A stretch of DNA of 64,000 nt from Colwellia sp. Its GTDB lineage: Bacteria > Pseudomonadota > Gammaproteobacteria > Enterobacterales > Alteromonadaceae. Every line of letters starts with the position of its first letter. Positions within the stretch are counted from its first letter, which is position 1. The notes under the pieces are model-generated. The model was not told where the DNA came from and did no database searches. It was given only the letters and a program-made list of their open reading frames with translations. The stretch is taken from NCBI GenBank assembly GCA_013215655.1, contig JABSOX010000024.1, forward strand, positions 3,446 through 67,445. The letters run 5' to 3'. Shown here in pieces: positions 1 through 25,537 of the stretch. A program made the position numbers and the translations under genes.

Positions 1-2499
1 TTAATTAGTGATTTTTATCCAGTTGATGTTGATTGCACCGCCTAAAAAATCTAAGCGTAGAGTTTGCTCTCCGGCAACTAAATCAATCATAGCTGTTTGA
101 GAAGTCCATTCTTGCCAACCACCAGTATCAGCTACCACTTGGCTATCAACGACAACGCCACCCACCGAGGTTTCAAAGCCATCACTTCCACCAGAACTGG
201 CTAAGCGGTATTCAATGTTATAAGTGCCATCGGCAGGAATATTCACGGTATAATCTAAAAAGGTGCCTGTGTCGATCCAACCAGCATTTAGACCACCACC
301 TTCATCGGCAGTCTCTTCTGTTTGTACATTGTCACTAGCAGCATCCCAATCTTCCGCTTCAAGGTGAATTTCAAATGCAGGAGGGAAAAGTTCAAACCAG
401 TTAATATTGATAGCACCGGCGACAAAATCAAAACGCACTAAGTGTTCACCAGCAGTTAACAAAAATTCACCAGACGATTGTGTTATCCACTCTTGCCAGC
501 CACCCGTATCTGCTACAACTTGGGCATCGACCTCAGTTCCATCAATAGAAAGAGTAAAGCCATCACTGCCACCAGAGCTAGCTAAGCGATAATCTATGCT
601 ATAAGTACCGTCAGTAGGCACTGTAATGATATATTCTAAAAAGGTGCCTGAATCGATCCAACCAGCATTTAAGCCACCGCCTTCATCAGCGGTTTCTTCT
701 GTTTGTACATTGTCACTAGCAGCATGCCAATCTTCCGCTTCAAAACGAATTGGCGCAGGGCCATCAGGTTTATCAGCTTCTTGAACAGCAAGCGGAGCTT
801 GTATACAGCTTTCATTTGAAATGCAGCTCAATTGAATGTTATCTAATTGGAAATGCACACCACCGTGAAATTCCACCACAAGAATAGTACCAACATTACT
901 GGTATCCAGTGGCAATGGATCACCCTCAACAACCCCAGGAATCCAATTCAACCAGTCAGGCGCAAGGAAAGGCGTATCAACAAAATCACTTACTGGAATG
1001 TTATAAGTAACCCAAGTATCAAGCTCAAGTTCAGCAACATTCCAAGTAAACATCCCCATATAAGGCCAACCTGTTTCCATTCTTATGTCGAGTGTTTCTG
1101 TTAGGGTATTCGCGCTGTCGATATACATATCGAAACTTAATAAAGCATCGCGACCTATAAATTCAATACCTGGCGCAGCGATATTAATGTTGGCATCACC
1201 GTCAGGGTGACTGACATCAATCACTAAGCCATGATCACCTTCAAGTGTTAATATTTCGATAACAGGAGCATTGTAATTACCGATAGAAAGCTCAGTGATT
1301 TCATCTGTGTGATGCCATGTTAAAGGAGTTAAGTCTGAAACTTTAACGTCATCTTTATCAAAGAAGCCATCAGTAAAAATTTCAGTAACTTTAGCACCGA
1401 CTGATTCAATTCGATCTGAAGCGGCTTTGTTTATTGATTTGTTAACATGAGAAGCGCAGTTTTCTACGTTAGTTTCAATTAACGGATCACAAGACCAAAC
1501 TTTGACATAGTCAATCAGCATTTCTGCAATGGGTTCAATACCATCGACTGCTAAATTAATCACAATTTGCATGTTTTGATTGAAAGGACCCGCATTGTCG
1601 ATTACGACTTCTTCACCGTTTAAGGTGTAAGCCCAAGTATTTAGTGGGTCAACTGTATGTATATGAATACCATCGACATACCAGCGAATCTGATCGGGTC
1701 CCCATTCAATTGCATAGTTATGAAACTCTGTTTTAGCGCCAGCAACAGTATCACTATTAAAGTTAACGCCGTTAGTCAGCCCTAATCCATAATGAGCTCC
1801 AGCGATAATGCCACCAGAGGTGACTTCCATCGCTGTGAGTGTATTTTCACCATCATAGATGTCAGCCATGGGTAATAAGCCGAACACCGAAAATATATCG
1901 TTGCCTTCAGGGAGTTGAATACTGGCTTCGATACGACCAGAGGAGATGCCATTAAGAGCTTTTACTGAAGAAGTAGTATCTTCTTGTGCAGTAATAACAA
2001 GCACGCCATCAGCAATACTTGCATTGACCCCTGTCCACACGCTTTCATCGAGTTCAGCTGTATCAAACTCATCACTCAATACCAGACCCCAACCGTAGTC
2101 CTCAATAGATTCAAAATCATTGGCAATATCAAAGGTCAGCAGTGCGGTATCAGTTTCACCTGTAGACGATTGAGTAGCGACATAAGTTATGCTATCGATA
2201 CCAAAAAAATCAGCACTTGGTGTATAAATAAAACTACCATCGGCATTAAATTCCAAAGTACCATTTTCTACACCACTGCCCTCAGCAACCGCAAAAGTTA
2301 GTCCTTCACCAATATCATTTTTACTAACGTCACCTTCAACAGGATCGCCGTCTTCTACACCCTCAACAATATCTCCTACAGCAAATAAATTACGGACTAC
2401 ATTTTGATCGGCGTCCCCACCACCGCAGGCCGTTAGGGACGTTGCTACTGTCAGTGACAGTGCGATAAGTAGTTTGTTTTCTATCATCGTAAACCCCAT
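1..2499 (-). CDS. Multi-domain lipoprotein: cadherin-like/Big_9 repeat, degenerate GH16 (laminarinase-like) domain, putative CBM-like middle domain, two C-terminal CBM6 modules
   Basis: Lipobox SLTAC; GTLEFNADGSFIYTP..F.G.DS.TY cadherin-like motif; GH16 scaffold LVLSDEFD, GRIEA, FHNYAIEW, WYVDG, NLAV, IDYVKVW; two EAED...GWI...YRLAS...VADTGGWQ.W...NINW CBM6 units; TAA stop at 1-3; start could be 2487. Confidence 0.85.
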   Translation of the reverse strand: MGFTMIENKLLIALSLTVATSLTACGGGDADQNVVRNLFAVGDIVEGVEDGDPVEGDVSKNDIGEGLTFAVAEGSGVENGTLEFNADGSFIYTPSADFFGIDSITYVATQSSTGETDTALLTFDIANDFESIEDYGWGLVLSDEFDTAELDESVWTGVNASIADGVLVITAQEDTTSSVKALNGISSGRIEASIQLPEGNDIFSVFGLLPMADIYDGENTLTAMEVTSGGIIAGAHYGLGLTNGVNFNSDTVAGAKTEFHNYAIEWGPDQIRWYVDGIHIHTVDPLNTWAYTLNGEEVVIDNAGPFNQNMQIVINLAVDGIEPIAEMLIDYVKVWSCDPLIETNVENCASHVNKSINKAASDRIESVGAKVTEIFTDGFFDKDDVKVSDLTPLTWHHTDEITELSIGNYNAPVIEILTLEGDHGLVIDVSHPDGDANINIAAPGIEFIGRDALLSFDMYIDSANTLTETLDIRMETGWPYMGMFTWNVAELELDTWVTYNIPVSDFVDTPFLAPDWLNWIPGVVEGDPLPLDTSNVGTILVVEFHGGVHFQLDNIQLSCISNESCIQAPLAVQEADKPDGPAPIRFEAEDWHAASDNVQTEETADEGGGLNAGWIDSGTFLEYIITVPTDGTYSIDYRLASSGGSDGFTLSIDGTEVDAQVVADTGGWQEWITQSSGEFLLTAGEHLVRFDFVAGAININWFELFPPAFEIHLEAEDWDAASDNVQTEETADEGGGLNAGWIDTGTFLDYTVNIPADGTYNIEYRLASSGGSDGFETSVGGVVVDSQVVADTGGWQEWTSQTAMIDLVAGEQTLRLDFLGGAININWIKITN
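4..741 (-). repeat. Intragenic tandem duplication of a CBM6 module (381 bp period)
   Basis: tgtcactagcagcat at 330 and 711; protein EAEDW[H/D]AASDNVQTEETADEGGGLNAGWID[S/T]GTFL repeated 127 aa apart. Confidence 0.9.
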
Positions 2500-2553
2500 G
2501 TCTCATATTTCTCATGTTTTTCATATTATTATATGGAACCTAGTATTGTTCTC

Positions 2554-2566
2554 AGCGGTAACCGCT
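2554..2566. promoter_or_regulatory. Palindrome AGCGGT-A-ACCGCT, candidate operator upstream of the GH16-like gene
   Basis: Perfect 6 bp arms, GC-rich in an AT-rich spacer, about 55 bp upstream of the start; regulator unknown. Confidence 0.3.
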
Positions 2567-3272
2567 TTAGAATATACCTACAGCTCTCTACTTTCGTTAT
2601 GTGCTATTCATTTGGCATAAAAGATAAGTTATCCAATTAATAACACTTTATCCTTTTTAGAATAGTGCTCAATTCATGTCGTCCTGTTGAATAACTCGAA
2701 CAAAAAAATAGTCATAAACCATGTGTTTGAGTAAATGTAATTATAATGGACACCTTATAAATAAAGGCTTACCAGCTATTATCGATTTTTTTAGTTTTTT
2801 AACTAAATTACAAATAATCGCTTGATACACTTATGCCATCCGTAAAGTTTTATGTTGTTAAGTGCAAACTTGGGAATAATAACCTTAGTTTTTTTTGCAA
2901 AGGAAATAGGTTTTCCGTTATTTAAATAAATGTGACAGATGGATGAGGTAAATTAATTTTTGCAAAAACAAAAAACGAACCAGTTATGGTTCACCTGTGA
3001 GCTTCTTACTTTAGCTAAGTTTCGATCTCATTTAGCTTCTCCTATAACTTAAAACAGTCATAACAGTTTGTAATTTACAGAGCGATAATGAACTTGAATA
3101 TTCAAATAAAATAGAGTTAAATAGCCGTCCTTCGTAGTTGATTTTTATCAAAACTATATAGCTGTAAGGATTTTAAAAAATTTGGCAGGCTATTAATTAT
3201 CTATTCACTGCATTAATTAGCCGCATCAAAATAAGGAAACTATCTGCTGTAATTAGCATTTACCGCGAATGC

Positions 3273-3286
3273 TACATTTTGTTACA
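3273..3286 (+). promoter_or_regulatory. RstA-box-like site TACATTTTGTTACA
   Basis: Exact match to the E. coli RstA box consensus TACATNTNGTTACA, about 80 bp upstream of an operon encoding an RstA/RstB-like pair. Confidence 0.55.
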
Positions 3287-3364
3287 GATGATGGATCTTG
3301 TTACGTCAATATCCTTGCTAGCTCGACATAATGTATTTAATTTCAACAACACAGATAACAACCT

Positions 3365-4231
3365 ATGAATAATTTAAAAATAAAAAAATCACTTATCCCA
3401 TACTTATCTTTGGCAGCGATTATGGTTGCCAGCGCTAGTTTTTCTAGTGCCAGTTTTGCGAGCGATATTACCCACAGTGTTAGAAGTAATGCTGAGCAAG
3501 CAGATAGTTCAGCAAACTATTTCGAAATTGGCATAATGTATGCCATCGGCTACGGGCCGTCTTTTGGTGAAGATGGCGAGTGGTCGAATACCGATCCGGT
3601 TATTAATGGTAGTTATACTTGGAACAACTTTTTTATTGAATCCTATAGTGAAAGTGGCAACGGCATGGCTGTTGGCTATAACGCCTTTAGTAATGATAAT
3701 TGGTCGTTCGACTTCACGGTGACCACTGACTGGTTCCAATATAACTACGACAATGACGGTCGTTATGCGCTTCTTAATCACGAAGAAGACCTTAACGAAC
3801 TGACTATTGGTGGTAGACTTACTGGTTATATCGGCAATAACATCGTGCAATTTGCCATCAATCAGGATGCAACTGGCGAAAATAATGGTACCACTATTTC
3901 AGCCTTGATTGGGCGAAGCTGGCAAGTAAGAAATTGGAACTTTCATGGCATTATCGGTGCAGAATACGCGTCTGCTAAACTTAATGATTATTATATCGGA
4001 GTTTCACCAGAAAAAGCGTCATATTATACTGGCCTAGATGCTTATGAAGCAGGTGCTAGTGTCAGCTTTAGTACCGAATTTGGCGTTACCTACCCGATCA
4101 CAGAAGACTGGGTATTCAGAGCTACTGGCCGAATTGCCACTATCCCTAATGAAGTTACCGATAGCCCTTATTATGTCAACAAAGACTCAGTAGCTACTTC
4201 ATTTCGTACTAGCCTTAGCTATGTATTTTAG
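3365..4231 (+). CDS. MipA/OmpV family outer membrane protein
   Basis: Signal peptide, amphipathic beta strands, YY.GV...A..Y.AG motif, C-terminal LSYVF beta signal. Confidence 0.8.
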   Translation: MNNLKIKKSLIPYLSLAAIMVASASFSSASFASDITHSVRSNAEQADSSANYFEIGIMYAIGYGPSFGEDGEWSNTDPVINGSYTWNNFFIESYSESGNGMAVGYNAFSNDNWSFDFTVTTDWFQYNYDNDGRYALLNHEEDLNELTIGGRLTGYIGNNIVQFAINQDATGENNGTTISALIGRSWQVRNWNFHGIIGAEYASAKLNDYYIGVSPEKASYYTGLDAYEAGASVSFSTEFGVTYPITEDWVFRATGRIATIPNEVTDSPYYVNKDSVATSFRTSLSYVF

Positions 4232-4244
4232 GGGAAACAGAAAA

Positions 4245-4721
4245 ATGCCTCTACTTAAACAAATTATAAATACACGAGTAAAAACAAATAAAATGACTAG
4301 CTTGAACATGGTTACTTCCCTATTCATTGCGTGCTGCTTTATATCAGTTTCGTCTAATGCTGAGACGACTAAATTAATTGACTCGTTAAGTCATACCGAA
4401 CAATTGGCACGACTGAAAGTAACGCCTAAACCTTGTGTCGCTCTTCGCAAAGGACAAAAATGCTACCTTGAGGTGACCTTTAGTTGGCACCACCCCAACA
4501 TTAGCAATTATTGCCTGGTTAATTCGACAACAAATAAAACAATTAAGTGCTGGCAACAACAAGCGAAAGGACAGGTTAGCTTTGATTTCCAATCAAAGCT
4601 AACTAATGACTTTGCTTTACGTAAGCAAGCATCATCAGTGGATTTAGCTCGTGCGCAAATACCTGTCGCTTGGGTATATAAATCATCAAAACGTGCAAAG
4701 TCAACTTGGAGATTATTTTGA
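4245..4721 (+). CDS. DUF3019 family secreted protein
   Basis: L..TPK.CVALRKGQ.CY motif with conserved cysteines, signal-like N-terminus; SD ggggaa before ATG 4245 (alternative start 4293). Confidence 0.7.
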   Translation: MPLLKQIINTRVKTNKMTSLNMVTSLFIACCFISVSSNAETTKLIDSLSHTEQLARLKVTPKPCVALRKGQKCYLEVTFSWHHPNISNYCLVNSTTNKTIKCWQQQAKGQVSFDFQSKLTNDFALRKQASSVDLARAQIPVAWVYKSSKRAKSTWRLF

Positions 4722-5464
4722 CGGTAATCAGTTTGACCGAAGACCTTGCTGCTAAGCATATTATGTTAGTCGAAGATGACATGTCGCTAGCCGAATGGTT
4801 TAGCGACTATCTAAGCGAACAAGGCTATTTGGTGACTCTTGCTACTAGAGGAGACGTTGCCATTGAGCTGATTGAGTCGGATCAGCCTGATCTGGTGATA
4901 TTAGACATCATGTTACCGGTAAAGGATGGCTTTGAAGTATGTCAGGCTATTCGCCCCTTTTATCATGGTCCCATTTTAATGATGACGGCTCGTGATCATG
5001 AAACTGACGAAGTACTAGGGCTAGAGCTAGGCGCTGATGATTATGTCGTTAAACCAGTCAAACCTAGGGTATTGCTTTCACGGATCAAAGCACTTTTACG
5101 TCGGTCTGCTTCACAGGGAATAGCGCCAGCAGTCATAGCAGAAATAGATCCAAATAAATTAACTTTTGGTCAGCTCTGCATCAATGCAAATTCCCGTACG
5201 ACTACTTTGGCTGGTGCTAAAGTAGCTATTTCGTCGAACGAGTTTGATGTGCTTTGGCAACTTGCTCAGGCAGCAGATAATCTGGTTAGCCGAAAAGAGC
5301 TAGTGATCCAGCGCAGAGGTATAGACTATGATGGCTTTGATCGCTCGATCGATATTCTGGTCTCAAGAATACGCAAAAAATTGGGTGATGATGCCAGCAA
5401 TCCCTATCGAATAAAAACCGTGTGGGGTAAAGGCTATTTATTTGTTAAAGATGCCTGGGAGTAA
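4718..5464 (+). CDS. OmpR-family response regulator, RstA-like
   Basis: LVEDD, LVILDIMLP phosphoacceptor, KP, winged helix DRSIDILVSRIRKKLG..IKTVWGKGY; TTG start after GGAG overlaps the upstream TGA. Confidence 0.92.
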   Translation: MTVISLTEDLAAKHIMLVEDDMSLAEWFSDYLSEQGYLVTLATRGDVAIELIESDQPDLVILDIMLPVKDGFEVCQAIRPFYHGPILMMTARDHETDEVLGLELGADDYVVKPVKPRVLLSRIKALLRRSASQGIAPAVIAEIDPNKLTFGQLCINANSRTTTLAGAKVAISSNEFDVLWQLAQAADNLVSRKELVIQRRGIDYDGFDRSIDILVSRIRKKLGDDASNPYRIKTVWGKGYLFVKDAWE

Positions 5465-5484
5465 CTTATGCCTAGGAATATAGA

Positions 5485-6765
5485 ATGCCAAAATTAACCT
5501 TATCACTATTATTGGTCATATTAGTTGCTGTGATAGGCATAGGTGGGGTGCTTGACAATTTTTTTAACCAATATCAAACACAGCTAAGCAAAGAGTCCGA
5601 TGAATTATCAGCCTATCGTCAATTGGGAAAATCTTTGGCTTCAACCCTAGATAAGCATCAAAACGCTCAACAATTCATCGCTAATTGGCAGCAAGAAAGT
5701 AAGCTTTCGGTTACCTTAGCTCAACTTGATGATTTCTTTTTACCCGACTCCTTAAAACAATCCTTTTATGGCGGAGAGCCGCTGGTCTTTGAAACAGACA
5801 ATAGTATATCCATGCATTTTATTGTTCCCTCCCAGAAAAGCGTATTGATCTTTAATATTCCACCTGTTGTTAAAGAAAGTCGCAATAGCGCATTGCAACT
5901 GCTGTTAACTGGCGTTTTTTATCTTGGTATTTTAATGATGGTACTCATTTGGCTGTATCCATTGATTAAACAATTGAGACAGTTGAGGCAAACCACCAAG
6001 GCTTTTGGCGAGGGTCAGCTAAAACAGCGAATTAATATTAATTCAACGTCTTATATCGCTAGTATTGAAAATGAATTTAACCGTATGGCCCAGCGGATTG
6101 AAACTCTAATCAGTGATAACAAGCTGCTCAGTGATGCCGTTGCCCACGATTTAAGGACACCATTGGCCAGGTTGCGTTTTGGAATTGAGATTTTACAGGA
6201 AACAGAAAAACCTGAGACAAGGGAGAAATACCAACGCCATCTATCTCGTGATATTGATGAAATGGAGCGATTAGTTAATGTATTACTTAATTATGCGCGA
6301 ATAGAACAATCAATGATGGCAGTCGAACAACAAAGTATCGACCTTAATGCACTGGTTGGACAATGTGTGGGTGCGGTAGCAGACGGCGACAAGGTCATTA
6401 ACTGGCATGCAACAGGCGCAGCAACGGTTACTGGTGATGCAAATTACCTCAGCATGTTAATCAATAATTTGCTCGGTAATGCTCTACAATATGCCGATAA
6501 TGAGATTACCTTAATGATTGCACAAAGTGGCACCAGGCTACAATTTATTATTAGTGACGATGGTCCCGGCATTGCAAAAGAAAAGCGCAGTGAGTTGTTG
6601 AAACCCTTTATGCGCGGTGAGCAGGCTCATGAAAAGCCGGGTTACGGCATGGGCTTGGCTATTGTCTCAAGAATAGCTCAATTACATGATGCCAAGCTGG
6701 TCATTTCCGACTCTGTTGAGCTGGGCGGTGCTGAATTCTGTGTGACCTTTAATCAGTCAATATAG
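5485..6765 (+). CDS. Sensor histidine kinase, RstB-like
   Basis: Two TM segments, HAMP, H-box AHDLRTPLARLRF, N-box NLLGNALQY, DDGPGI, GYGMGLAIV. Confidence 0.92.
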   Translation: MPKLTLSLLLVILVAVIGIGGVLDNFFNQYQTQLSKESDELSAYRQLGKSLASTLDKHQNAQQFIANWQQESKLSVTLAQLDDFFLPDSLKQSFYGGEPLVFETDNSISMHFIVPSQKSVLIFNIPPVVKESRNSALQLLLTGVFYLGILMMVLIWLYPLIKQLRQLRQTTKAFGEGQLKQRININSTSYIASIENEFNRMAQRIETLISDNKLLSDAVAHDLRTPLARLRFGIEILQETEKPETREKYQRHLSRDIDEMERLVNVLLNYARIEQSMMAVEQQSIDLNALVGQCVGAVADGDKVINWHATGAATVTGDANYLSMLINNLLGNALQYADNEITLMIAQSGTRLQFIISDDGPGIAKEKRSELLKPFMRGEQAHEKPGYGMGLAIVSRIAQLHDAKLVISDSVELGGAEFCVTFNQSI

Positions 6766-7258
6766 ACATAAAGCGGTCGTTATTGTTGTTCAAATCATCC
6801 CTCCAAACGCTCACTTTGCTACGTTAGCTGACTTTCCTGAATCGCTATTTAACAACAATATTAGCCATGATTGATTGAAAAACTATATAACTATAATGCG
6901 TTAGTACTTAATAGACGTATTTAAAAGCTTGAGGAAACAGATAAACATAATGAAGGTTCTGATTTTTGGTGCACATAACTAAAAGGTTAAATTAAACAAT
7001 AATATTTTATAAGTTTTTCATTGCTGCGCGTAAGTGGCTGTAACAAAGTATGTTTACAATCACAGCAACTCACAATTTTTTTTATCAAATTAATCAATCA
7101 CCTAAGAAATAAAAAAGATTAAGCAAGGTTATATGTAACCCATTAGTGACATTTGTTATTACATTTACCGCAATCTTTATTACAACCATTTCAGAAAAAG
7201 TTGCCACTATACAAGTAACAGAAAGTCTTGTTATTAATTTATTTTTAGGGGAATACCA

Positions 7259-7606
7259 ATGAACATGAAAAAATTATCTATCGCAGTTTTAATGACCACA
7301 GGTTTAATCGCTTCAACTCAAGCAGCAGATGTTGTTGCTGCAAATAATTCTCAATTTACTCAATTATGTGTAACTGCTGCCGCGGGTAATCGTGCCGCTA
7401 TGCATAACGCAATTAAGTCCTCTGGTTACTCACGTACTTATGTTGCTAACAATGTACAATGTAATGGTGAAAATATTATCAGTTTTGTTGAAAACAATGG
7501 TAAAAATTCAAATGCAATGATCCATACTTTAGACCGTACAGCGACTAAAGTTACCATTACAGATCTTGCTGATAACCGTGCAGAGAAAAATGTACATGCT
7601 GGGTAG
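7259..7606 (+). CDS. DUF3718 family secreted protein
   Basis: Signal peptide; T.LC..AA.G and V.CNG..I..F motifs typical of this Alteromonadales family. Confidence 0.7.
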   Translation: MNMKKLSIAVLMTTGLIASTQAADVVAANNSQFTQLCVTAAAGNRAAMHNAIKSSGYSRTYVANNVQCNGENIISFVENNGKNSNAMIHTLDRTATKVTITDLADNRAEKNVHAG

Positions 7607-7628
7607 TACTGTGTTTCTGAAGTTTAAT

Positions 7629-7652
7629 TCAGCGAGGGAACATGCTCGCTGA
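7629..7652 (+). terminator. Hairpin terminator after the DUF3718 gene
   Basis: TCAGCGAG-N8-CTCGCTGA stem followed by a T-rich tract. Confidence 0.6.
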
Positions 7653-7964
7653 GGCTTTATCTTTGATATCCATCTATTAAAATTTTCAACACCGAAACAC
7701 CTTGCAGTTATCGTCGAGCCGAATTCATCAAATATAATTTTCTCTTCGATACGATAACTGACATTTCATTAATTAGTTTTGATAACCTGTCTGTGCGCTC
7801 AGCGAAATAAATGTTGTCATGGTTAAAACGCTCATAAACAACAACTACAAAACATCCTTTAAATCTAAAGTTATTAACAATCGTCTGATAACTTTAAGGG
7901 GCATTTAGTTGATAAAATATTTATGACCCTTCAGAGAAATTCGTTTAGAATTTCACTTTGATTA

Positions 7965-9785
7965 TTAAACTTTGATAATAATATTTCTACCCGCATCTTT
8001 TGCTGCGTAAAGTCCGCGATCAAGTTTCTGATAAATATCTGTAAAAGAACTTATTGCTTTGTTAAATTCGGTGTATGAAAAACTGGCAGTGATAGAAACT
8101 TCGTTACCATTATCAATAACAACACAAGAATGTTCCATAGAGTATCTTATGCGCTCTAAAATTTCTTTAGCCTTGTCTGAAGAAATATCCTTTAAGCATA
8201 ATAAAAATTCTTCCCCTCCTATTCGGCCAAATACATCCTGTTGTCGAATATTTTCTAGCGTAATTTTTACAGCATGTTTAATGACTTCATCACCAATAGC
8301 ATGACCATAATTATCATTAACGCTTTTAAATTTATCCAAATCAATTAACGCAATTACGTGATGCTTTCCTTGAGAAGGGAGCTGTATACGACTCAAAGTT
8401 TGTAACATCGCTCTACGGTTTGAAATATTGGAAAGTTCATCGGTTTCAGCAAGGTGTTTATGTCTATTTTTAAGCTGCCAAAAAAGTAAAGCCAACAACA
8501 TAAAAACAGCTAAAATAGCCACAATCAACATTATGACTAATCGACTTGATTTCAGATCATTTCGCGCTAAAGAAAGCTCCATTTCTACGATGTTTTGATA
8601 AAGTTGTGCGCTACCAATTACCATACTAGATACTTGTTGTTCCAGTAATATCGCTCTATTCTTATCAAGATATTTATCAAAAAACATTTTTGCTTTAAGG
8701 CTGTCACCTTTTTCAATGTAGTATTTTGTTAAAAAGGTCAGTAGCCATATATCATCGGCTGAATAACTATTGGGATCCTTATTAACATCTTCTATAAAAG
8801 AAGATACACATACTTCTCTTTTAGCTTCAATACAAGCAAGTGCTCTTAATGTACTTATCCTCTTGGTATTGTACTCTATTTCTAAATCAGGAATTAACGG
8901 TGAGAGTTCGTCCATTAGACTAATTAATACGGGGTAATCACGTTTTTCATAAGCTATTTTTGCCTGATAAATATAACTTAAACCATCAGCCATTAAATTG
9001 CCCTTAAAGTGCAATCCCTCTTTAAGTAATAAAGGCACTATTTTTTCAGCACTTTTTATATCACCTGCATCCAAATAGTCTGTGCCGAGATTATAATAAC
9101 TGGTAAAACTTTCCATACTTTTTTCTTTTAATGGCATTAATGTCATTGCTTCTTGACGAAGTTTTGCCGCGGTAGAATTTTGTCCAATGAAGGCATATTC
9201 GTTGGCCATAGTCTCGAGTATATCTACTTTATATTTTTTATTTTTATCATCGTTGAGTGTTTCAAGTAACCGATAGAGCTTACGAAGCTTTTCAACTTGG
9301 TTATTTTTGTGACAAGAGGTAATTTCCACTTTGGTGAGCATAAACGTTAATGCAAAAGGTGTTTTGTTTGTAATTCTAAGCTTTGCTGAAGTGTTGTATT
9401 CACAGGCATTTTCATAATTGTATATGAATAATTCATTACCTACAGAGTGCAATGCTGCAAGATAAATATTAGGATCAATCTCATCTTCGGGGAAAATGGT
9501 TATCTTTTTTTGCGCTTCATGCTCCAATCCATACTGACCTTTACAATGATATATATTAGATTTTACGTATAATAAATAGGCATGTTGGTTGTACGAGAGG
9601 TTTTTGGTGTCTTTTAAATAACCTTCAATATCTGCTTCAATATCACCATACAAGCAGGTTTCATAGAAATCATCTCGCTCTTCCACTATATTGATAATTT
9701 CCTCAATATCAGACACAGCAAATACAGGTTGTGACCAGTAAAGTGCCGTAAATAACATTAAGATCCGTAAAGACAGATTAACCAT
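7965..9785 (-). CDS. Membrane-anchored TPR-like/GGDEF diguanylate cyclase
   Basis: Signal-like MVNLSLRILMLFTALYWSQPVFA (ATG 9785; the track start 9860 is probably over-extended), helical-repeat region, TM helix, DELSNISNRR, IDLDKFKSVND.YGH..GD, RQQD I-site, GGEEF. Confidence 0.9.
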   Translation of the reverse strand: MVNLSLRILMLFTALYWSQPVFAVSDIEEIINIVEERDDFYETCLYGDIEADIEGYLKDTKNLSYNQHAYLLYVKSNIYHCKGQYGLEHEAQKKITIFPEDEIDPNIYLAALHSVGNELFIYNYENACEYNTSAKLRITNKTPFALTFMLTKVEITSCHKNNQVEKLRKLYRLLETLNDDKNKKYKVDILETMANEYAFIGQNSTAAKLRQEAMTLMPLKEKSMESFTSYYNLGTDYLDAGDIKSAEKIVPLLLKEGLHFKGNLMADGLSYIYQAKIAYEKRDYPVLISLMDELSPLIPDLEIEYNTKRISTLRALACIEAKREVCVSSFIEDVNKDPNSYSADDIWLLTFLTKYYIEKGDSLKAKMFFDKYLDKNRAILLEQQVSSMVIGSAQLYQNIVEMELSLARNDLKSSRLVIMLIVAILAVFMLLALLFWQLKNRHKHLAETDELSNISNRRAMLQTLSRIQLPSQGKHHVIALIDLDKFKSVNDNYGHAIGDEVIKHAVKITLENIRQQDVFGRIGGEEFLLCLKDISSDKAKEILERIRYSMEHSCVVIDNGNEVSITASFSYTEFNKAISSFTDIYQKLDRGLYAAKDAGRNIIIKV

Positions 9786-10465
9786 AAAATATTGATACCT
9801 AAAATATCGAAATTTCGCTAAGCGTGATCTTATATTAAAGACTGCCAGTGGCGCAGTCAACCATATGTTTTAATTGAAAAATTTACAAGTAATTGACAAT
9901 GTACTTACAATTAATCCCCAACATCACTTTGCATAAACATATGTTCTGATTGATAGTTGTCCGCTAACGTCTTATAAATCGTAGGGACAAATAGCTGGTA
10001 AGCATAAGCTATATTTACATGCGAAAAATTACGGTTAAATTATTTATCTTGTCTGCGATAAAATATTGAAGTATATCTGCCATAACATCATATTAAACAT
10101 GATCATGTAATGCATTAGCATTAGGTCTTTCAACTGGAAGTGTTTAAAACAGCTGGAATTGCAAAGTAATTCTGCTGAGTAATTGTAGTTTTAAATGTGT
10201 ATAGCAGGGTGATTTCTACTTAAAGTTAACCTTTAAATATCAACTACCTTTGATGTAATTAACATCAAAACGTAAGTTATTATAATTACTGTAGCAACAA
10301 AATTTTATTAATCAAAATAATCTAACCGGTGTCAACTTTTTCAATCAGTTGACCTGAATAACGGCCGATAACTAGCTTCCGCATTACGGATAGAATTGTT
10401 AGTTTCTACAAGAGCTCATATTTTCTTAAAAGACTTAAATTTATCAGCTTAATATAATTATATTC

Positions 10466-10497
10466 AAAAAGCCCCGACACATAAATGACGAGGCTTT
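10466..10497 (-). terminator. Rho-independent terminator of selD-selU
   Basis: AAAAAGCC...GGCTTT hairpin, U-tract on the minus strand. Confidence 0.55.
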
Positions 10498-10566
10498 ATC
10501 AAATATTATTTTTGTTAAGCACACCAAATTGTCTATTTATTAAATCTAAGCCTGTGGCGCAATACT

Positions 10567-11682
10567 TTACAAATGGTGCAAAAAATCCACACATTGCGCG
10601 TTGTTACCACGAAAAATCACTCTGTCGGCCTTTAATCCTAACTGATATTGATACATAGGATCATAGTATTCGCTGAGCAGTGGTCTTAACCAATCAAGGT
10701 GATAGTGTGGTTGACCATTTAGCTGCTGAGTTAAGGCCACACTCTGTATTTTCTTTAACTGGCCATAACGTTCTGTACCAAGGCGCTTCCGTACTTTGAA
10801 TAAGCCTTGAACTAAATACTGGCTGAAGGCAATAAAACCTTGTTCAACGCCATATGTGGTTTTGTATTGGGTTGTCATTTGTATGATATATTCTTGATAT
10901 ATATGCTCAAGTCGATATTCTAAGCTTTCTTCAATTACTACTATTGGCGCTAATGTCATGGCTTGTCGTAAACTTTCAGGCAAATGGACACTACCAATTA
11001 ACCGGCCTTCATCTTCTAAAAGCAAGGTTTGCTCAAGAGAATAGCTACCGGTGATGTATTGCTCAGCCAGTTTATTTTCAAAATTTATTTGATTTGATTG
11101 TGCAGTAACGAAACCACCAAAACTAGAACCTCGATGGCCCGCTGCCGCTTCTAAATCTAAACTGTTAACACAATGAGCTAAAAAAGGCGTTTTTCCACAG
11201 CCGGTATTGCCGGCTAAAACTGTTAAAGGGTGTAACGCTAACTGTTCAAGTTCGCTGAGTAAAAACTGTCGAAGTGCTTTATAGCCGCCAATAAGCAGTG
11301 GATAGTTAACCCCTGACTCCTTTAACCAGCGCTGCACTGTTTGTGAACGTAAACCGCCGCGAAAACAATATAAATAACCCTGTGGATTTTCCCTGGCAAA
11401 GTTTTGCCATTGTGCTAACCGTCTTGCTTTACTCTGTCCGGTAACGAGTGAATTACCCAGGGTGATGGCGGCCGCTTGTCCTTTATTTTTATAACAAAGA
11501 CCTACTTCCGCGCGTTCATCATTATTCATTAATGGGTAATTAATTGACTGGTTAAATGCGCCCTTTTCAAATTCAATCGGTGCGCGTACATCCATTAAAG
11601 GGATTTTATTGCCAATAATAGCGCGAAAATCACTAGTATCGGCTCGTTCTATTGTTGAAGTACTTATGCTACTTATGGTCAT
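10567..11682 (-). CDS. selU: tRNA 2-selenouridine synthase
   Basis: Rhodanese domain DVRAPIEF..G and [10 protein letters not shown]-loop [20 protein letters not shown]; overlaps the selD stop (TAATG). Confidence 0.95.
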
Positions 11683-12713
11683 TACAACAAATTCACAGTT
11701 GGAGAAGTTGCTGCCACAAGTTCGCCAATGGGTTGTAGATTAAGGCCATTGTCTTGACATAACGCTTCAAAAGCTAGCTTGCCTTGTGGCTGTACAGCAA
11801 CAAGTAAACCGCCACTGGTTTGAGGATCGCACAACAGTGTTTTTTGTTTGGCGCTTAACGGCCCAACATGCTCACCATAACTATCAAAATTTCGCTGACA
11901 ACCACCCGGGATACAGCCTTGAATGATGTAATCGTTGACGAAATCAAGCAGCGGTACTTGGTCAAAATCGATAACCGCCGCAACACCACTGCCTTGACAC
12001 ATTTCCAAGAGGTGCCCTAACAGTGCAAAGCCGGTCACATCGGTCATCGCCGTAACCGTTTCCAGTTCTGCGAACTTTTGTCCAATTGTATTTAAGGTTT
12101 TCATGACTTGTGGCGCTAATTGCGCGTGCTCAGGTAACAATTTCCCTTGTTTTTCAGCCGTGGTTAAAATGCCAAGACCTAACGGCTTAGTTAAATATAA
12201 AAGATCGCCAACCCCTGCGGTATTATTTCGTTTTATCTGCGCATTATTAATCAGGCCAGTAACCGCTAAGCCAAAAATAGGCTCGGGCGCGTCAATGGAA
12301 TGGCCACCCGCTAACGGGATCCCTGCCTCAGCACAAATAGCTCTAGCCCCATCAAGCACTTGTTGGGCAATTTCTGGCGCTAAAATATTGACTGGCCAGC
12401 CTAAAATGGCTATCGCCATTAGTGGTTTTCCGCCCATGGCATAAATATCGCTGATGGCATTACAGGCAGCAATTTTACCAAAGTCAGTGGGATCATCGAC
12501 AATGGGCATAAAAAAATCAGTGGTTGAAATCACCGCTTGATCATTACCAATATCAAAAACGGCCGCATCATCCTTGGTGCTGTTACCCACTAAAAGAGCG
12601 TTGTTTTCTGGTAAAGTGAGAGATGATTTTAGCATCACATCAAGTACCGATGGTGAAATTTTACAGCCACAACCTGCGCCGTGTGAGTATTGGGTCAAGC
12701 GAATTGGTGTCAT
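11682..12713 (-). CDS. selD: Selenide, water dikinase (Cys-type)
   Basis: [57 protein letters not shown]. Confidence 0.97.
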
Positions 12714-13058
12714 AGTGATTCAGATAAAGAGTAAGTAACTAGATAATTTACAGTAATATCCCCCGTGTTACACCTGAGGATTAATATATAATTATTGATG
12801 CTGGCATAAAGCTTCAAATAAGGGCTTACTTACCATAAAATTTATCTCGGTTTGTGCGCCTTTCCGAAATACAAAATTATTTTTAGACCGTATATTCTTA
12901 GGCGAAATCGCCCCCTATTATTAATTGCAATATCGAGGAGGACCATACATTTGTGCCCCAATATAACTATCAAATTAGTTGCTAAAATTATAAAATCACA
13001 ACTAATTAAGATCTAATGTCCAACCACATACATTGAATTTTTTTAATTATCAAAGAAC

Positions 13059-13092
13059 AAAAAAGCGACCACTCAAAAGAGTAAGTCGCTTT
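13059..13092 (-). terminator. Terminator downstream of glmS, located inside the putative Tn7-like end
   Basis: AAAAAAGCGAC...GTCGCTTT hairpin with U-tract on the minus strand. Confidence 0.75.
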
Positions 13093-13103
13093 AATTCACG
13101 CAT

Positions 13104-13153
13104 AGGTAGTTCTAACTTTATTCGTTGGTTTCCAACTTTATTTAGAACCCACA
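13104..13153 (-). repeat. Tn7-like end: terminal TGT plus two TnsB-site-like direct repeats
   Basis: Minus strand reads TGTGGGTTCT AAATAAAGTT GGAAACCAAC GAATAAAGTT AGAACTACCT; AATAAAGTT at offsets 12 and 32; Tn7R begins TGTGGGCGGACAATAAAGT with AATAAAGT at offset 12. Confidence 0.72.
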
Positions 13154-13235
13154 AACAGCTTTCAACCGCCTATCATTATTCGACAGTAACCGATTTTGCC
13201 AAATTACGTGGTTGATCCACATCAGTACCTTTAAT
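13154..13235 (-). other. attTn7 site (glmS 3' end and insertion point)
   Basis: Conserved glmS tail [17 protein letters not shown] is the TnsD recognition region; the end begins 22 bp after the stop. Confidence 0.75.
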
Positions 13236-15008
13236 TATCGCCACGTAATATGAAAGTAGCTGTAAGGGTAGGGTATAAACAATCGGCGCAATTAGGTCAT
13301 CACACACAGGCACGTCGATAACCTTCATGGTTTCATCGCTGGTGAAGTTAGCTTTACTGTCAGCAAATACATACATTAGACCGCCACGAGCGCGAACTTC
13401 TTCAACGTTAGATTTTAATTTTTCAATCAAATCATTTTGTGGAGCTACTACAATTACTGGCATTTCAGCATCAATAAGTGCTAATGGACCATGTTTAAGC
13501 TCACCTGCGGCATAAGCCTCTGCATGAATATAGGAAATTTCTTTTAGCTTTAACGCGCCTTCCATCGCAATAGGGTATTGGTCACCTCGGCCTAAAAACA
13601 ATGCATGGTTTTTATCAGCAAAGTCTTCAGCAAGAGCTTCAATTGATGGGGCTAACGCTAAGACTTCATCAAGTTTAGCGGGCAAAGTCATTAGTGATTG
13701 TGCTATCTCAGCTTGTTTTTCTTTTGTCATACCGTGATGTTGTCCTATTGCTAGGGTCATCATCATCAAACCAACAAGTTGTGTGGTAAATGCTTTAGTT
13801 GATGCAACACCAATTTCTACGCCAGCTTTGGTCATAAAGGCTAAGTCAGACTCGCGAACTAACGAAGAACCGGCAACATTACAAATAACCAAACTTGATT
13901 TATAACCAATCTCTTTAGCTAAACGTAAGGCAGCTAAAGTATCAGCAGTCTCACCTGATTGTGAAATAGTGACGATAAGGGAATTTTTAGGGACAAAGGA
14001 TTTACGGTATCTAAATTCACTGGCAATTTCGATGTTACACGATACACCTGCTAGTGCTTCTAACCAATAACGTGCCACCATACCTGAGTGATAACTGGTA
14101 CCACAGGCAATAATTTGAACGTGTTCTATTTCTTTAAAAATATCGTCAGCACCTTCACCAAAAGTATTGATGTCTAAAACGCCACCCACTAAACGCCCTT
14201 CTAAAGTATTACGAACGGCTGTAGGTTGCTCGTAAGTTTCTTTCAGCATGTAATGACGATATTCGCCTTTATCGCCGGCATCGTTGCTTGCTTCAGTTTC
14301 TTTAATTTCTCGTTCAACGCTATTGCCATCAAGATCAACAATATTGACTTCAAAACGGGTAACTTCAGCGACATCGCCCTCTTCCAAAAATGAAAAGCGA
14401 CGGGTAACAGGTAATAATGCCATCATGTCTGAGGCAATAAAATTTTCGCCTAAACCATAACCAATCACTAATGGACTACCTGAACGAGCGACAACAATGC
14501 GGTCTTTGTCTGTTGAGTCCATCACAACCGTGCCATAGGCACCTTCAAGTTGTTTAACTGTTTTTTGTACCGCTGACAATAATGTTTCACTGCTTTTTAA
14601 TTCATGATGCACTAAATGAGTAATAACTTCGGTATCTGTCTGTGAGACAAACTCATAACCTAAACCTTGTAGACGAGTTCGTAACTCATTGTGGTTTTCT
14701 ATGATGCCATTATGAACAACAGCAATAGTATTGTTCGAAAGATGAGGGTGAGCGTTCACTTCGCTTGGAACACCATGAGTTGCCCAACGTGTATGAGCGA
14801 TCCCCGTACCACCAGCTAATGGTGCGTTTGATAAGGCATCGCCAAGCTCTTGTACTTTACCTAAGCGTTTCACACTAGTTAACTGATGGCTTTCATCAAT
14901 GATAGCCACACCTGCTGAATCATAACCGCGATATTCTAACCGTCTAAGTCCCTCTACTAATATATCTGCTACGTCTCGTTGTGCCACTGCACCCACTATT
15001 CCACACAT
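13176..15008 (-). CDS. glmS: Glutamine-fructose-6-phosphate aminotransferase
   Basis: [44 protein letters not shown]. Confidence 0.99.
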
Positions 15009-15059
15009 AAAATTTGTCCTTTAATTTTTAATCTTAATATTAATCAGTCATCGCATTGT

Positions 15060-15821
15060 CTAGTTAGCAATAATCAGATTAATACCTTGGTTAGTTAATT
15101 GATTAATTATTTCTTCTGATAAACCGTTATCGGTAATCAGGGTATGTACTTGTTGCCATGGCAATTCTAGGTTTGGTATTTTCCGACCAATCTTATCTGA
15201 CTCAACCATAACAATAACTTCTCTTGAAACCTCAGCCATAACTCGGCTAAGGCCAATAAGTTCATTAAACGTTGTTGTCCCTCGGGTTATATCTATACCA
15301 TCAGCACCAATAAATAATTGATCGAAGTCGTAACTGCGTAATACCTGTTCGGCAACTTGGCCTTGAAAAGCTTCTGAATGCGGATCCCATGTACCACCGG
15401 TCATCAATAATATGGGTTCATTTTCTAAGGCACGTAAATCACTGGCAATTGATAAAGAATTGGTCATAACAATTAATCCTTTTTTATCCTCAAGCTCGGT
15501 CACCAATGCAGATGTTGTCCGGCCGCTATCAATAATAATTCGGTTATGATCACGAATTAATAATACCGCTTGTTTAGCAATTGCTAACTTTCGTTTCGAA
15601 AGTTTTTCATTTTTAGTTTCGATGATTTCTTTTGGAAGTGAAATCGCACCGCCATACCGTCTTAAAAGTAAACCACTGGTTTCCAAAGCGGCTAGGTCTT
15701 TACGAATGGTTACTTCAGAAGTACTAAATTGTTTGGATAACTGATCTACACTTACCTTACCACTCTGATTAAGCTCGGTAATAATAGTGTGACGTCTTTG
15801 TTGAGTATTTCTTTTTGACAT
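15060..15821 (-). CDS. glmR: DeoR-family regulator of the glm operon (GlmR-like)
   Basis: HTH SEVTIRKDL..LE..GLL.R.YGGA, IIDSG.TT, FDQLFIGADGI; directly upstream of glmS as in Vibrio/Pseudomonas. Confidence 0.85.
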   Translation of the reverse strand: MSKRNTQQRRHTIITELNQSGKVSVDQLSKQFSTSEVTIRKDLAALETSGLLLRRYGGAISLPKEIIETKNEKLSKRKLAIAKQAVLLIRDHNRIIIDSGRTTSALVTELEDKKGLIVMTNSLSIASDLRALENEPILLMTGGTWDPHSEAFQGQVAEQVLRSYDFDQLFIGADGIDITRGTTTFNELIGLSRVMAEVSREVIVMVESDKIGRKIPNLELPWQQVHTLITDNGLSEEIINQLTNQGINLIIAN

Positions 15822-15862
15822 TTAGATGCTTAACTTTTGTTTCATTACTTTTGAACACAATT

Positions 15863-15881
15863 AAGTTTCGGTTTGAAACTT
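15863..15881. promoter_or_regulatory. Inverted repeat AAGTTTC-N5-GAAACTT, candidate GlmR operator
   Basis: Perfect 7 bp arms about 40 bp upstream of the glmR start. Confidence 0.5.
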
Positions 15882-15950
15882 TTAGCTATTAAAACAAAAG
15901 TTAGCTTATCTGGCAATGTTTATTTTTATTCAGGCTAGATACTAAAAAGA

Positions 15951-16691
15951 TCAATCTTTTTTCATCAATAAATGGCGGTATTCTTTAGTTTTTTGGTATT
16001 TATTCATTGCTTCTTTAAATGATTTAACCAGTAGTTCATCACTATTTATACTCAAAGCAAGGTAACTTGCTCTTCTATTTGCTGAAACAACGGGGCTATA
16101 GATTACTTTAACCGTTTTATTCTTATGTAGCTCAATGTACTTTTTAATGGCATTGGGATCATGGTAGACCAAATCGACTTTGCCACTAATGAGTAATTTA
16201 AATGCTGTTTCTGGTTTAGTAACAATATATAGATTATCTTTAAAACCTTTGCTGACCAGTTCATGGTAGCTATTTGAATTCCTGGTAACGCCTATCACTT
16301 TATTTTCAATATCACTATCAGTCGTTATTAAGTTTTCTGGTTTTGCTTCTAATGAAATAAATACTCTTGAGAGTTCACTTACAATGCCAATCCAATGAAA
16401 ATCATTTTCTCTTTCAGGTGTTCTGATGATACTTAAAATTAATGTGTTAGCTCTTTTAGATGCCAAATCAAAGGCTCTGGGCCAAGGCATAAAGTCTATT
16501 TTTGTTGTTAAAGAAAGCTCTTTGAGTAAAGCGTTGGTAATTTCGGCTGTTGGGCCCTTAGCCTTACCATTTTCAATGTAGTGCAGTAATTGCCGTTCGG
16601 CGGCAACAATACGTAAATTATTTACATCACCAGCTTTTGCAAAAAAGCAAAATAATGAAATTATAATAATAAGGAATATTTTAATCTGCAT
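15951..16691 (-). CDS. Orphan periplasmic substrate-binding protein (family 3-like)
   Basis: Signal peptide, G...EI..ALL, FMPWPRAF, IIRTPERE..FHWIG, AFKLLISGKVDL, YLALS. Confidence 0.8.
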   Translation of the reverse strand: MQIKIFLIIIISLFCFFAKAGDVNNLRIVAAERQLLHYIENGKAKGPTAEITNALLKELSLTTKIDFMPWPRAFDLASKRANTLILSIIRTPERENDFHWIGIVSELSRVFISLEAKPENLITTDSDIENKVIGVTRNSNSYHELVSKGFKDNLYIVTKPETAFKLLISGKVDLVYHDPNAIKKYIELHKNKTVKVIYSPVVSANRRASYLALSINSDELLVKSFKEAMNKYQKTKEYRHLLMKKD

Positions 16692-16757
16692 ACTTTAATA
16701 GTAACTTAATACTAGGTATTTTCATCTGAGATACCGCTAAATATTTTCCTTCGGGCA

Positions 16758-16785
16758 TAAAAAAAGGCGCAAATATGCACCTTTA
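16758..16785 (-). terminator. Terminator after glmU
   Basis: AAAAAAAGG(C)GC...GCACCTTT hairpin, U-tract on the minus strand. Confidence 0.6.
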
Positions 16786-16804
16786 TTATAAACCACTGAA
16801 AATA

Positions 16805-18175
16805 TTAATTTTTAATTGGCCGTGGCCAATTGCTAATATTTCTTTGTTTTCCACGTGCAACCGCTAAATCATTATCTTCAACGTCTTTAACAATAACAGA
16901 ACCCGCACCAATGGTTGCCATTGCCCCAATATTTACAGGAGCTACAAGTGAGCTGTTAGAACCGACAAATGCGCCTTCGCCAATAACAGTTTTAAACTTG
17001 TTTACGCCATCATAATTACAAGTAATTGTGCCTGCACCAATGTTTACCCTAGCGCCGATATCACTATCGCCTAAATATGAAAGATGACCCGCTTTTGCGC
17101 CTTCTCCCAGAGTGGTATTTTTCATTTCTACAAAGTTGCCGACATGGGAATCGTTTTTCATTACCGATCCTGGGCGGATACGAGCAAATGGACCCAGTGA
17201 ACAATATTCACCAATTTCTGCACCTTCAATAATTGAGTGTGGTTTAATCTCAGTATTTTTACCTATAGTACAATTTTTTAAAATACTGTTCGCACCTATT
17301 ATCACACCATCGGCAATAGCTACTTTACCTTCAAATATACAATTTACATCTATGACCACTTCTTGGCCTACACTAATTTCTCCACGAACATCAATTCTTG
17401 CGGGATCCCGTAATGTTGCACCGGCAAGCATTAACTCTTCAGCTTGACGTGCCTGATAGGCACGCTCTAATACTGCAAGTTGCACGCGATTATTAGCGCC
17501 AGATACTTCAATCTCAGTATCAGGGTGAGCAGTAGTAATAGTTTTACCTTCTCTATGGGCGGCAGCAATGATATCTGTAAGGTAATATTCACCTTGGGCA
17601 TTGTCACTTGAGAGGTTTGATAACCAACGCTTTAAATCACCACCATTGGCCAATAAAATTCCAGTATTAGCTTCATTAATTAACAACTGCTCTGCACTAG
17701 CGTCTTTCTGTTCAATAATGCCAACTACTTGGCCATTATCTCTAACAATTCTGCCATAACCTGTTGGGTTAGCTAAGTTTACTGTTAATAACGACATTCC
17801 ATCACTAGGCTTTACCGCTATCAAACTTTCTAACGTCGTAACTTTCGTTAATGGTACATCCCCGTAGAGTACCAGTACATTTTCATCATCTTTAATAAAA
17901 GGAGAGGCCATATCAACTGCATGACCTGTGCCTAATTGATCTACTTGCTCAACAAAAGTTAAATCATCTCCTGATTGTTTATCGGTGAGTTGTGACTTTA
18001 AAACATCGCCGCCAAAGCCATAAACTACATATATATTACTGGCGTTTAATTGCCTAGCACTATCAATTACATGACTAACCATAGGTTTATCAGCAATAGG
18101 GTGTAGCACTTTAGGCAGAGAAGAGCGCATACGAGTACCTTTACCCGCGGCTAGGATGACAACTGAAAGAGACAT
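16805..18175 (-). CDS. glmU: Bifunctional UDP-GlcNAc pyrophosphorylase / GlcN-1-P acetyltransferase
   Basis: [25 protein letters not shown], hexapeptide repeats, GTITCNYDG. Confidence 0.99.
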
Positions 18176-18369
18176 AGTTATTCCATTAGATGTTTTTATG
18201 ACGCTATTGTAGCGTTAATGATTGTTTGTTTAAATATTTGATCAGTTTTTTAATTTAATGAATTACCGATCAGCCCTCTTGAGGATGACCGCTATCGTCG
18301 CCCATTCAGTCACTGGCAACACAACATTACTTTAAAGGATCTAATAACTTATTATTCAACCCTAAATAT

Positions 18370-18407
18370 AAAAAAACGGCATTTACTATAAGTAAATGCC
18401 GTTTTTT
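18370..18407. terminator. Bidirectional terminator of the atp operon
   Basis: AAAAAAACGGCATTTAC-TATAA-GTAAATGCCGTTTTTT perfect stem. Confidence 0.9.
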
Positions 18408-18457
18408 GTTCACTAAAACTTAGTGTTTTCGGTATCTATAAGTTCGCTTGTAACAGT

Positions 18458-18880
18458 TTAAACTTTCTTTTTAGTCGCTTGAATTACGCGTAATTGCGCA
18501 GTCACACGAGCTAATTCTGCAGCTACTTCAGCATAGTCAACATCACCGCCATGAGCGTTCATGTGTTCTTCTGCACGTTGTTTAGCTTCTAAAACAACTT
18601 GTTCATCTAAATCGTCAGAGCGTACAGCAACATCTGCCAATACGGTCACACTATTTGGTTGAACTTCTAACATGCCACCAGAAAGATAAAGAATCTCTTC
18701 TTCTCCGCCGTATTTTACAATACGAGCCATACCAGGTTTTAGTGAGGTCAACAAAGGTGCGTGACCAGGCATAATACCTAATTCACCCTCTGTACCTGCG
18801 ATCTGTAGTGATTCAATACGACCAGAGAATATTTCCTCTTCGGCACTAACTACACTTAGATTTACTGTCATTGCTGACAT
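18458..18880 (-). CDS. atpC: ATP synthase epsilon subunit
   Basis: [23 protein letters not shown]. Confidence 0.97.
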
Positions 18881-18976
18881 ATCGACCTCCTAATAAGTAA
18901 GGTTAAGCTTAATCGTTCTTCAATTTACTAATGAGTAGTAACTAAAAACAACTAAGCTAAGTCCTTACTAATATGA

Positions 18977-20371
<1,395 letters not shown>

Positions 20372-24341: not shown

Positions 24342-25537
<1,196 letters not shown>

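Follow-up and report, generated by a model that had tools for sequence, protein, structure and literature searches.

Does the DNA beside glmS in a Colwellia genome form a small transposon that brought in the genes for tRNA selenouridine? The question is raised by a 64,000-nucleotide stretch of Colwellia sp. (assembly GCA_013215655.1, contig JABSOX010000024.1, positions 3,446 to 67,445 of the forward strand), hereafter the window, in which selD (selenophosphate synthetase) and selU (tRNA 2-selenouridine synthase) lie next to glmS. An earlier note on this sequence had read the interval 10203-13158 as a mini-Tn7-like element without a transposase, inserted at the attachment site attTn7 and carrying selD-selU as its only cargo. 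We compared the locus with the rest of the genome under study (G000, whose contigs are labeled C1, C3, C79, C83, and so on, the window lying on C83) and with other genomes. The interval is not a transposable unit, as it lacks a left end and a target duplication and the genome lacks transposition proteins. We read positions 13106-13153 as the dead right-end relic of a Tn7-like transposon and selD-selU as a spare copy of the operon rather than mini-transposon cargo, a reading to which we assign a probability of roughly 65%. As a whole, the locus is a decayed attTn7 island, or scar, ordinary in kind, adjoining a spare selD-selU in accessory DNA.

A Tn7-like right end faces glmS

The glmS gene of the window (13176-15008, minus strand, 610 amino acids [aa], Pfam SIS and GATase) is followed by a 22-bp attTn7 spacer (13154-13175, minus strand) that separates its stop codon (13176-13178) from a Tn7-like end. 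As the earlier note had described, the minus strand reads TGTGGGTTCTAAATAAAGTTGGAAACCAACGAATAAAGTTAGAAC from 13153 to 13109, that is, TGTGGGTTCTAAATAAAGTTGGAAAC followed by CAACGAATAAAGTTAGAAC. The terminus is TGTGGG (13153-13148), and we likewise found the AATAAAGTT repeat at offset 12 and again 20 bp on. The 20-mer of this end occurs once in the window, with 0 occurrences expected. We delimit the relic at 13106-13153 (minus strand, ~48 bp). Its terminal TnsB-type site, TGTGGGTTCTAAATAAAGTTGGAAAC (13153-13128), is intact and matches AATAAAGWTGGAAAC at 15/15 positions, and its second site, AATAAAGTTAGAACT, is decayed and matches at 12/15.

The position is that of the TnsD pathway, in which the right end faces glmS at ~25 bp. 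Relatives with a Tn7-like end after glmS have a TGT-initiated sequence with AATAAAG-type repeats, and reading of their alignment gave a spacer of ~22 to 25 bp. At the same spot in relative G021, the glmS-side end is followed by intact TnsA, TnsB, TnsC, TnsD, and TnsE, and decayed end-like sequences can be read from the alignments past glmS in G001, G002, G005, G024, and contig C79 of G000 itself. In E. coli Tn7, the distance from glmS to the right end (Tn7R) is 25 bp and tnsA comes next, whereas in the window the distance is 22 bp and no tnsA follows. The first site of Tn7R and that of the window have TGTGGG, AATAAAGT, and AAAC in common and in register (18/26 by hand alignment), and in both the right end faces glmS and a second site lies 20 bp on. 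Tn7R has four TnsB sites. In contrast, the window has only one or two sites and lacks a left end, and the genome lacks tns genes. The spacing, the recurrence of the family, and the comparison with Tn7R all support a Tn7-like right end at the canonical attTn7 position.

Elsewhere in G000, two matches to the end at 17/20 positions, one on C15 and one on C120, stand alone without another site close by and look like chance. A pair of AATAAAGTT motifs 20 bp apart also occurs on the plus strand at 24550-24578 (24550 and 24570), inside an open reading frame of the atp operon (24342-25136). Its spacing is that of the relic, but neither its side of glmS nor its orientation is right, and we treated it as chance.

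The locus thus shows a recognizable end at an attachment site, homologous to element ends elsewhere, with neither a partner end nor tns genes, which makes it a relic or genomic-island scar. Genomic islands and decayed Tn7-like remnants reportedly occur at attachment sites. Tn7-like remnants have been described at the nrdB site in Acinetobacter (PMC11014353). As in such islands, a right-end remnant at the attachment site is followed by variable, strain-specific genes. Unlike them, the relic of the window is only ~48 bp long and abuts a native terminator, another piece of this end is present at a distance of 2.6 kb, and the attachment site is on an extra and apparently imported glmS locus.

The interval lacks a left end, a target duplication, and a transposase

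The left end had been placed at 10208-10227 (plus strand), where GGTGATTTCTACTTAAAGTT matches the right end in inverted orientation. The count of 15/20 is correct, but the match is not significant, since matches of at least 15/20 occur at 112 places genome-wide, or ~0.10 per 10 kb per strand. The proposed end starts with GGTGAT, hence with GGT rather than TGT, so that the terminal TGT...ACA is not present at both ends of the interval. At the six positions that follow, where the TnsB site of the family has its GGAAAC half, it agrees at 0/6, and it has no further sites. An end would carry several TnsB repeats, and the left side is at background: the best TnsB-site-like 15-mer in 10191-10450 scored 11/15, a value reached or exceeded in ~13% of random 260-bp windows. 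No significant homology to the ends of the family was found for the proposed left end. By eye, 10203-10440 resembled the interior of a right end, a resemblance that we dropped because local alignments were no better than those of shuffled sequences.

A true left end would show an inverted TGTGGG end, spaced AATAAAGTTGGAAAC sites, and an AACAG duplication matching that at the right end. When the whole genome was scanned for AATAAAGWTGGAAAC with up to 2 mismatches, the relic was the only perfect site, no cluster of sites appeared anywhere, and contig C83 contained no left-end sites at all. The 5-bp flanks of the interval, AGCAG and AACAG, agree at 4/5 positions as claimed, but they differ at one position and are not an exact target duplication. 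The proposal that the joined flanks restore a split glmS terminator failed, as these flanks fold at -8.5 to -10.5 kcal/mol versus means of -9.9 to -10.5 kcal/mol for shuffled sequences. Nor does homology to other genomes stop at the boundaries of the supposed element, as seen with C. piezophila, with G003, and with the second selD-selU copy on C3. In G003, the homologues of window positions 13106-13162 and 10446-10508 are adjacent; therefore, a fragment of a right end, in right-end orientation, lies only ~220 bp inside the supposed left end.

We then considered the transposition genes. Pfam searches of G000 for TnsA_N and TniQ gave no match, and the positive controls G021 and G029 scored. A tblastn search of G000 with TnsA to TnsE of G021 returned only a TnsA stub on C79 (96 to 112 aa) and no TnsB, TnsC, TnsD, or TnsE. 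Neither the interval nor the genome in trans thus supplies tnsA, tnsB, tnsC, or tnsD-tniQ, and the suggested mobilization in trans has no source of TnsABCDE in G000 by either search.

The end family in other Colwellia genomes

The exact end TGTGGGTTCTNAATAAAGTT is present in six Colwellia genomes. Members of the family lie beside glmS in Colwellia sp. 12G3 and C. piezophila, beside recQ in G003 (loci L041 and L050), beside ubiG in Colwellia sp. MB3u-45, and beside nrdB in a C. psychrerythraea isolate (L166), and one forms a three-site left end in C. demingiae. Real left ends of the family have 2 or 3 spaced sites. A conserved sequence of ~120 bp, TGGAATTATTACGTTTAAG...CTAAGGGCAGTAGCTGCCACA, follows the sites in L041/L050, L166, and L169 to L171, beside different housekeeping genes. 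TnsB searches of genomes G041 to G045 gave only distant matches (25 to 28% identity) on other contigs, and no close tns homologue was found in the 7 genomes with this end that were checked, G000 included.

Beside ubiG in Colwellia sp. MB3u-45 (L165, 5888-10275), we observed a clean nonautonomous Tn7-like element of 4.39 kb. Both ends carry TGT, the left end has two sites 62 bp apart, the sites of the right end are packed, and the duplication (GCTGT/GCTGT) is perfect. The element contains no tns genes, and its single cargo gene encodes a 1092-aa S8 peptidase with PKD domains. Like the window, this element has a terminal TGTGGGTTCTAAATAAAGTTGGAAAC and no tns genes, but it also has a left TGT, left-end sites, and a perfect 5-bp duplication, none of which the interval of the window shows on its left.

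The model in which 10203-13158 is a complete nonautonomous mini-Tn7-like element, mobilized in trans with selD-selU as sole cargo, can draw on the genuine right end at attTn7, on the 15/20 inverted match with 4/5 flanks, and on MB3u-45, where a real mini-element with ends of this family lacks tns genes. Its supposed left side lacks a terminal TGT and TnsB sites, its target duplication is inexact, the hairpin of its joined flanks is at chance level, and the genome has no tns genes. In addition, the interval encloses a native terminator and fragments in right-end orientation (see below), and neither an empty nor a filled site with boundaries at 10203-13158 was found in any genome examined. We consider this model largely refuted and very improbable.

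selD-selU is a spare copy of an operon native to the genus

As the earlier note stated, selD and selU are the only genes in the interval and no tns genes accompany them. selD (11682-12713, minus strand) encodes a 343-aa selenophosphate synthetase of the Cys type with the motif HGAGCGCK (Pfam AIRS and AIRS_C), and selU (10567-11682, minus strand) encodes a 371-aa tRNA 2-selenouridine synthase (Pfam Rhodanese) with the motif CFRGGLRS and the P loop GNTGCGKT. Judged by these domains and motifs, namely, the AIRS fold and Cys-Lys motif of SelD and the rhodanese Cys and P loop of SelU, both intact, the pair is predicted to be a selenouridine operon. It resembles the gammaproteobacterial selD-selU (ybbB/mnmH) operon in its AIRS-type SelD with GCGCK, its SelU with rhodanese Cys and P loop, its overlapping genes, and its conserved upstream region, and it differs from the typical operon in being a second copy in one genome and in adjoining glmS.

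The other copy of both genes is on C3. It is 85.8% identical at the nucleotide level, and the homology is confined to window positions 10532-12823, from ~110 bp upstream of selD to ~35 to 40 bp past the selU stop. The proteins are 91% (SelD) and 87% (SelU) identical. The ratio of nonsynonymous to synonymous substitution rates (dN/dS) is 0.08 for selD and 0.18 for selU, with a dS of ~0.5 to 0.6, and the catalytic motifs are intact in both copies, both of which are under purifying selection. The tail past the selU stop (10532-10566, minus strand) aligned only with the C3 copy, and blastn homology to five further Colwellia genomes also stops at the selU stop. On the other side, homology to the C3 copy and to the selD loci of relatives stops at ~12791 to 12823.

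A single selD-selU copy, never near glmS, is present in all 7 same-genus relatives and in the 5 further Colwellia genomes. The placement of selD-selU beside this glmS is thus seen in no other genome examined, as the earlier note expected, but its claim that the trait arrived as cargo of a Tn7-like element does not hold, since these 12 genomes have the operon elsewhere and G000 itself has the second copy on C3. Because every Colwellia genome examined carries the operon elsewhere, the selenouridine trait is native to the genus, with the window copy a diverged extra copy that may be a xenologue or an old paralogue. The selD-selU tree was a star and identified no donor. Scanning public genomes with SelD was uninformative, as nearly all of the taxa recovered were distant.

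The region upstream of selD (12714-12823, minus strand), a promoter or leader, is conserved in the genus and was duplicated along with the genes. Within it, the sequence at 12735-12790 (GTGTAACA...ATATTACTGTAAATTAG) is conserved across all aligned selD loci of Colwellia, has no match in Rfam, and is a possible regulatory site. Because it carries its own genus-conserved promoter region, we infer that selD-selU would be an ordinary expressed operon. SelD would make selenophosphate, with which SelU would turn the 2-thiouridine of the tRNA wobble position into 2-selenouridine.

The relic abuts the native glmS terminator

The earlier note had reported terminators near both ends of the interval, and folding bore this out. 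One of them, hairpin A (stem-loop at ~13056-13092), folds at -19 kcal/mol (z, -5.0); the other, hairpin B (~10466-10500), folds at -20.4 kcal/mol (z, -5.5). Hairpin A belongs to a module at 12940-13096 (minus strand) that comprises the glmS terminator of this lineage and ~110 bp, lay outside the former element, and is single copy in G000. In C. demingiae, hairpin A lies ~75 bp past the glmS stop with no Tn7 sites between, and a 91-bp copy of the hairpin and its flank abuts the outside of the three-site left end, 15 kb away. Hairpin A also follows glmS with no Tn7 sites between in G009, a member of another genus, and in G024 it is found on the far side of an island, 20 kb from glmS. Because it is outside Tn7 DNA in all three genomes, hairpin A is native flank, and deletion of the remaining element DNA would therefore have produced the relic. 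The junction between relic and hairpin A recurs in C. piezophila, minus 20 bp between the two site repeats. This species shares glmS, the relic, and hairpin A with the window (by blastn to window position 13036 and by eye to ~12940), and beyond ~12940 it has unrelated genes and no selD-selU.

Beyond what is shown, namely, the anatomy of the locus, its homologies, and the lack of tns genes, we infer the following order of events. The element would have inserted 22 bp downstream of glmS via the usual TnsD/attTn7 route, and the rest of it would then have been deleted, leaving one TnsB site intact and the second to decay, in the position where the relic now abuts hairpin A. Hairpin A would insulate the selD-selU operon from glmS read-through, and hairpin B would terminate the operon.

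Two further observations concern this terminator in other genomes. The 91-bp segments of C. demingiae (L164, 912-1002 and 16001-16091) form a direct repeat that is 99% identical and consists of the glmS terminator with its attTn7 flank. One copy abuts the three-site Tn7-like left end, the other adjoins glmS, and no right end is present; an empty-site copy therefore seems to have taken the place of the glmS-proximal end of that element. In G009 (L038), the glmS stop and the conserved terminator are separated by ~10 tandem copies of the 7-bp unit CTAAGAA.

Between hairpin A and the selD promoter lies a dispersed repeat resembling repetitive extragenic palindromes (REP-like; 12851-12963, strand not assigned; GGGGCACAAATGTATGGTCCTCCTCGATATTGCAA..., GGCGAAATCGCC). 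It has many copies in C. demingiae, some at contig starts and in permuted order, and it also matches contigs C116 and C1 of G000. Rfam gave no match in 9800-13300 of the window, and GC content showed no clear island boundary.

A second right-end fragment beyond selU

Hairpin B, on the far side of the operon, is a terminator (10446-10508, minus strand) oriented like the relic. Right ends of the family to which the relic belongs have a homologous terminator immediately after their TnsB sites. In G003 (L041), positions 9886-9948 match window positions 10446-10508 (78%), and positions 9949-10005 match 13106-13162 (86%), so that the two segments that are contiguous there are separated here by 2.6 kb containing hairpin A, the REP-like repeat, and selD-selU. 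Colwellia sp. 12G3 has a similar hairpin after its TnsB sites.

Several points weigh against the reading of a relic beside a spare operon. One is that selD-selU is bracketed by two pieces of one right-end family, which a simple deletion model fails to explain. At its borders, the selD-selU module has neither a duplication nor an inverted repeat that would point to an insertion mechanism. The 15/20 match at 10208 is uncommon locally, with only ~0.03 to 0.13 such matches expected in the searchable stretch, and C83 ends 16.6 kb beyond the relic, which leaves room for a distant left end. Finally, the element of MB3u-45 exists, and tns-less mini-elements are therefore possible in principle.

In an alternative reading, a larger Tn7-like element at attTn7, or a stack of such elements, formerly carried selD-selU as true cargo. 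The operon would have been loaded between the TnsB sites and hairpin B or between two tandem right ends, and the tns genes and the left end would since have been lost or lie beyond the contig; even then, the unit would not be 10203-13158. Consistent with this, the TnsB sites and hairpin B, contiguous in G003 and 12G3, flank selD-selU here in the same orientation, and a TGTAGAAAC motif lies past hairpin B at the spacing of the next site in G003 (by eye). The DNA farther left would also suit a larger element. A GGDEF diguanylate cyclase (7965-9860, minus strand, Pfam GGDEF) lies left of selU in strain-specific accessory DNA that runs to the contig end; its best relative is 34% identical, the other genomes compared have no orthologue, and window positions 1-10200 have no DNA match in five other Colwellia genomes. 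However, the sites and selD are separated by hairpin A, which C. demingiae has outside the element and which is the glmS terminator in genomes where no Tn7 end follows that gene. Known elements carry cargo on the left-end side of the tns genes and not inside the right end, contig C83 has no left-end sites, and the homology beyond hairpin B is not significant. We regard former cargo status of this kind as unlikely, though it deserves to be kept in view, and we retain the reading of a dead right-end relic beside a spare operon.

Two glmS loci in one genome

G000 has a second glmS at C79:82401-84233, whose product is 86% identical to that of the window. In the glmS tree, the window copy grouped with C. 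piezophila and Colwellia sp. 12G3 (support, 99/98) and the C79 copy grouped with G001, and the window glmS is, on this phylogeny, most simply an imported, xenologous extra copy. On C79, the order is atpD' (a 3' fragment), atpC, glmU, deoR, glmS, and a 96-aa tnsA stub, followed by the downstream gene order of the relatives, and this copy has its own Tn7-like end beside the tnsA stub. The products of atpC-glmU-deoR-glmS of C79:81953-87629 (L029) are 97, 79, 79, and 86% identical, respectively, to those of window positions 13176-19238. Between glmU and deoR, the window copy (15951-16691) encodes a 246-aa periplasmic solute-binding protein (SBP_bac_3) that is absent from the C79 block and has no second copy in the genome.

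Since both genes are duplicated, the juxtaposition of glmS and selD-selU might be an artifact of assembly. In addition to the duplicate copies, the end of C79 runs into C83 within atpD, where the two share a 77-mer, and 32 contig ends run into the interior of another contig. Yet the longest exact match between 9801-19300 of the window and the C3 copy is 31 to 40 bases, far below the apparent assembly k-mer of 77, and the C79 matches of 61 to 80 bases begin in atpC (window position ~18553), not in glmS or selD-selU. The copies are only 75 to 86% identical, and the genome has no second gene set. An artifact is therefore hardly credible. Contamination by a second organism was rejected because there is no genome-wide set of diverged duplicates.

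A composite history, in which selD-selU was Tn7-like cargo within or between right ends and the block atpC-glmU-deoR-glmS-attTn7 was imported from a Colwellia resembling C. piezophila or 12G3, is in our view distinctly improbable. If it were true, there would be two attTn7 landing sites in the cell, and each of them would bear a separate Tn7 relic.

Implications

A two-gene operon next to a convincing transposon end can mimic a mini-transposon, and here the relatives revealed a 48-bp scar at a native terminator. For this Colwellia, the selenouridine genes are a spare copy and not a newly delivered trait, and the result is mainly a correction. Its further value is modest: it documents a family of Tn7-like ends in Colwellia, of which at least one copy is a clean nonautonomous element, and it describes one genome with two diverged glmS/attTn7 loci. 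It also advises caution, as attTn7 scars may outlast the element that made them by a long time.

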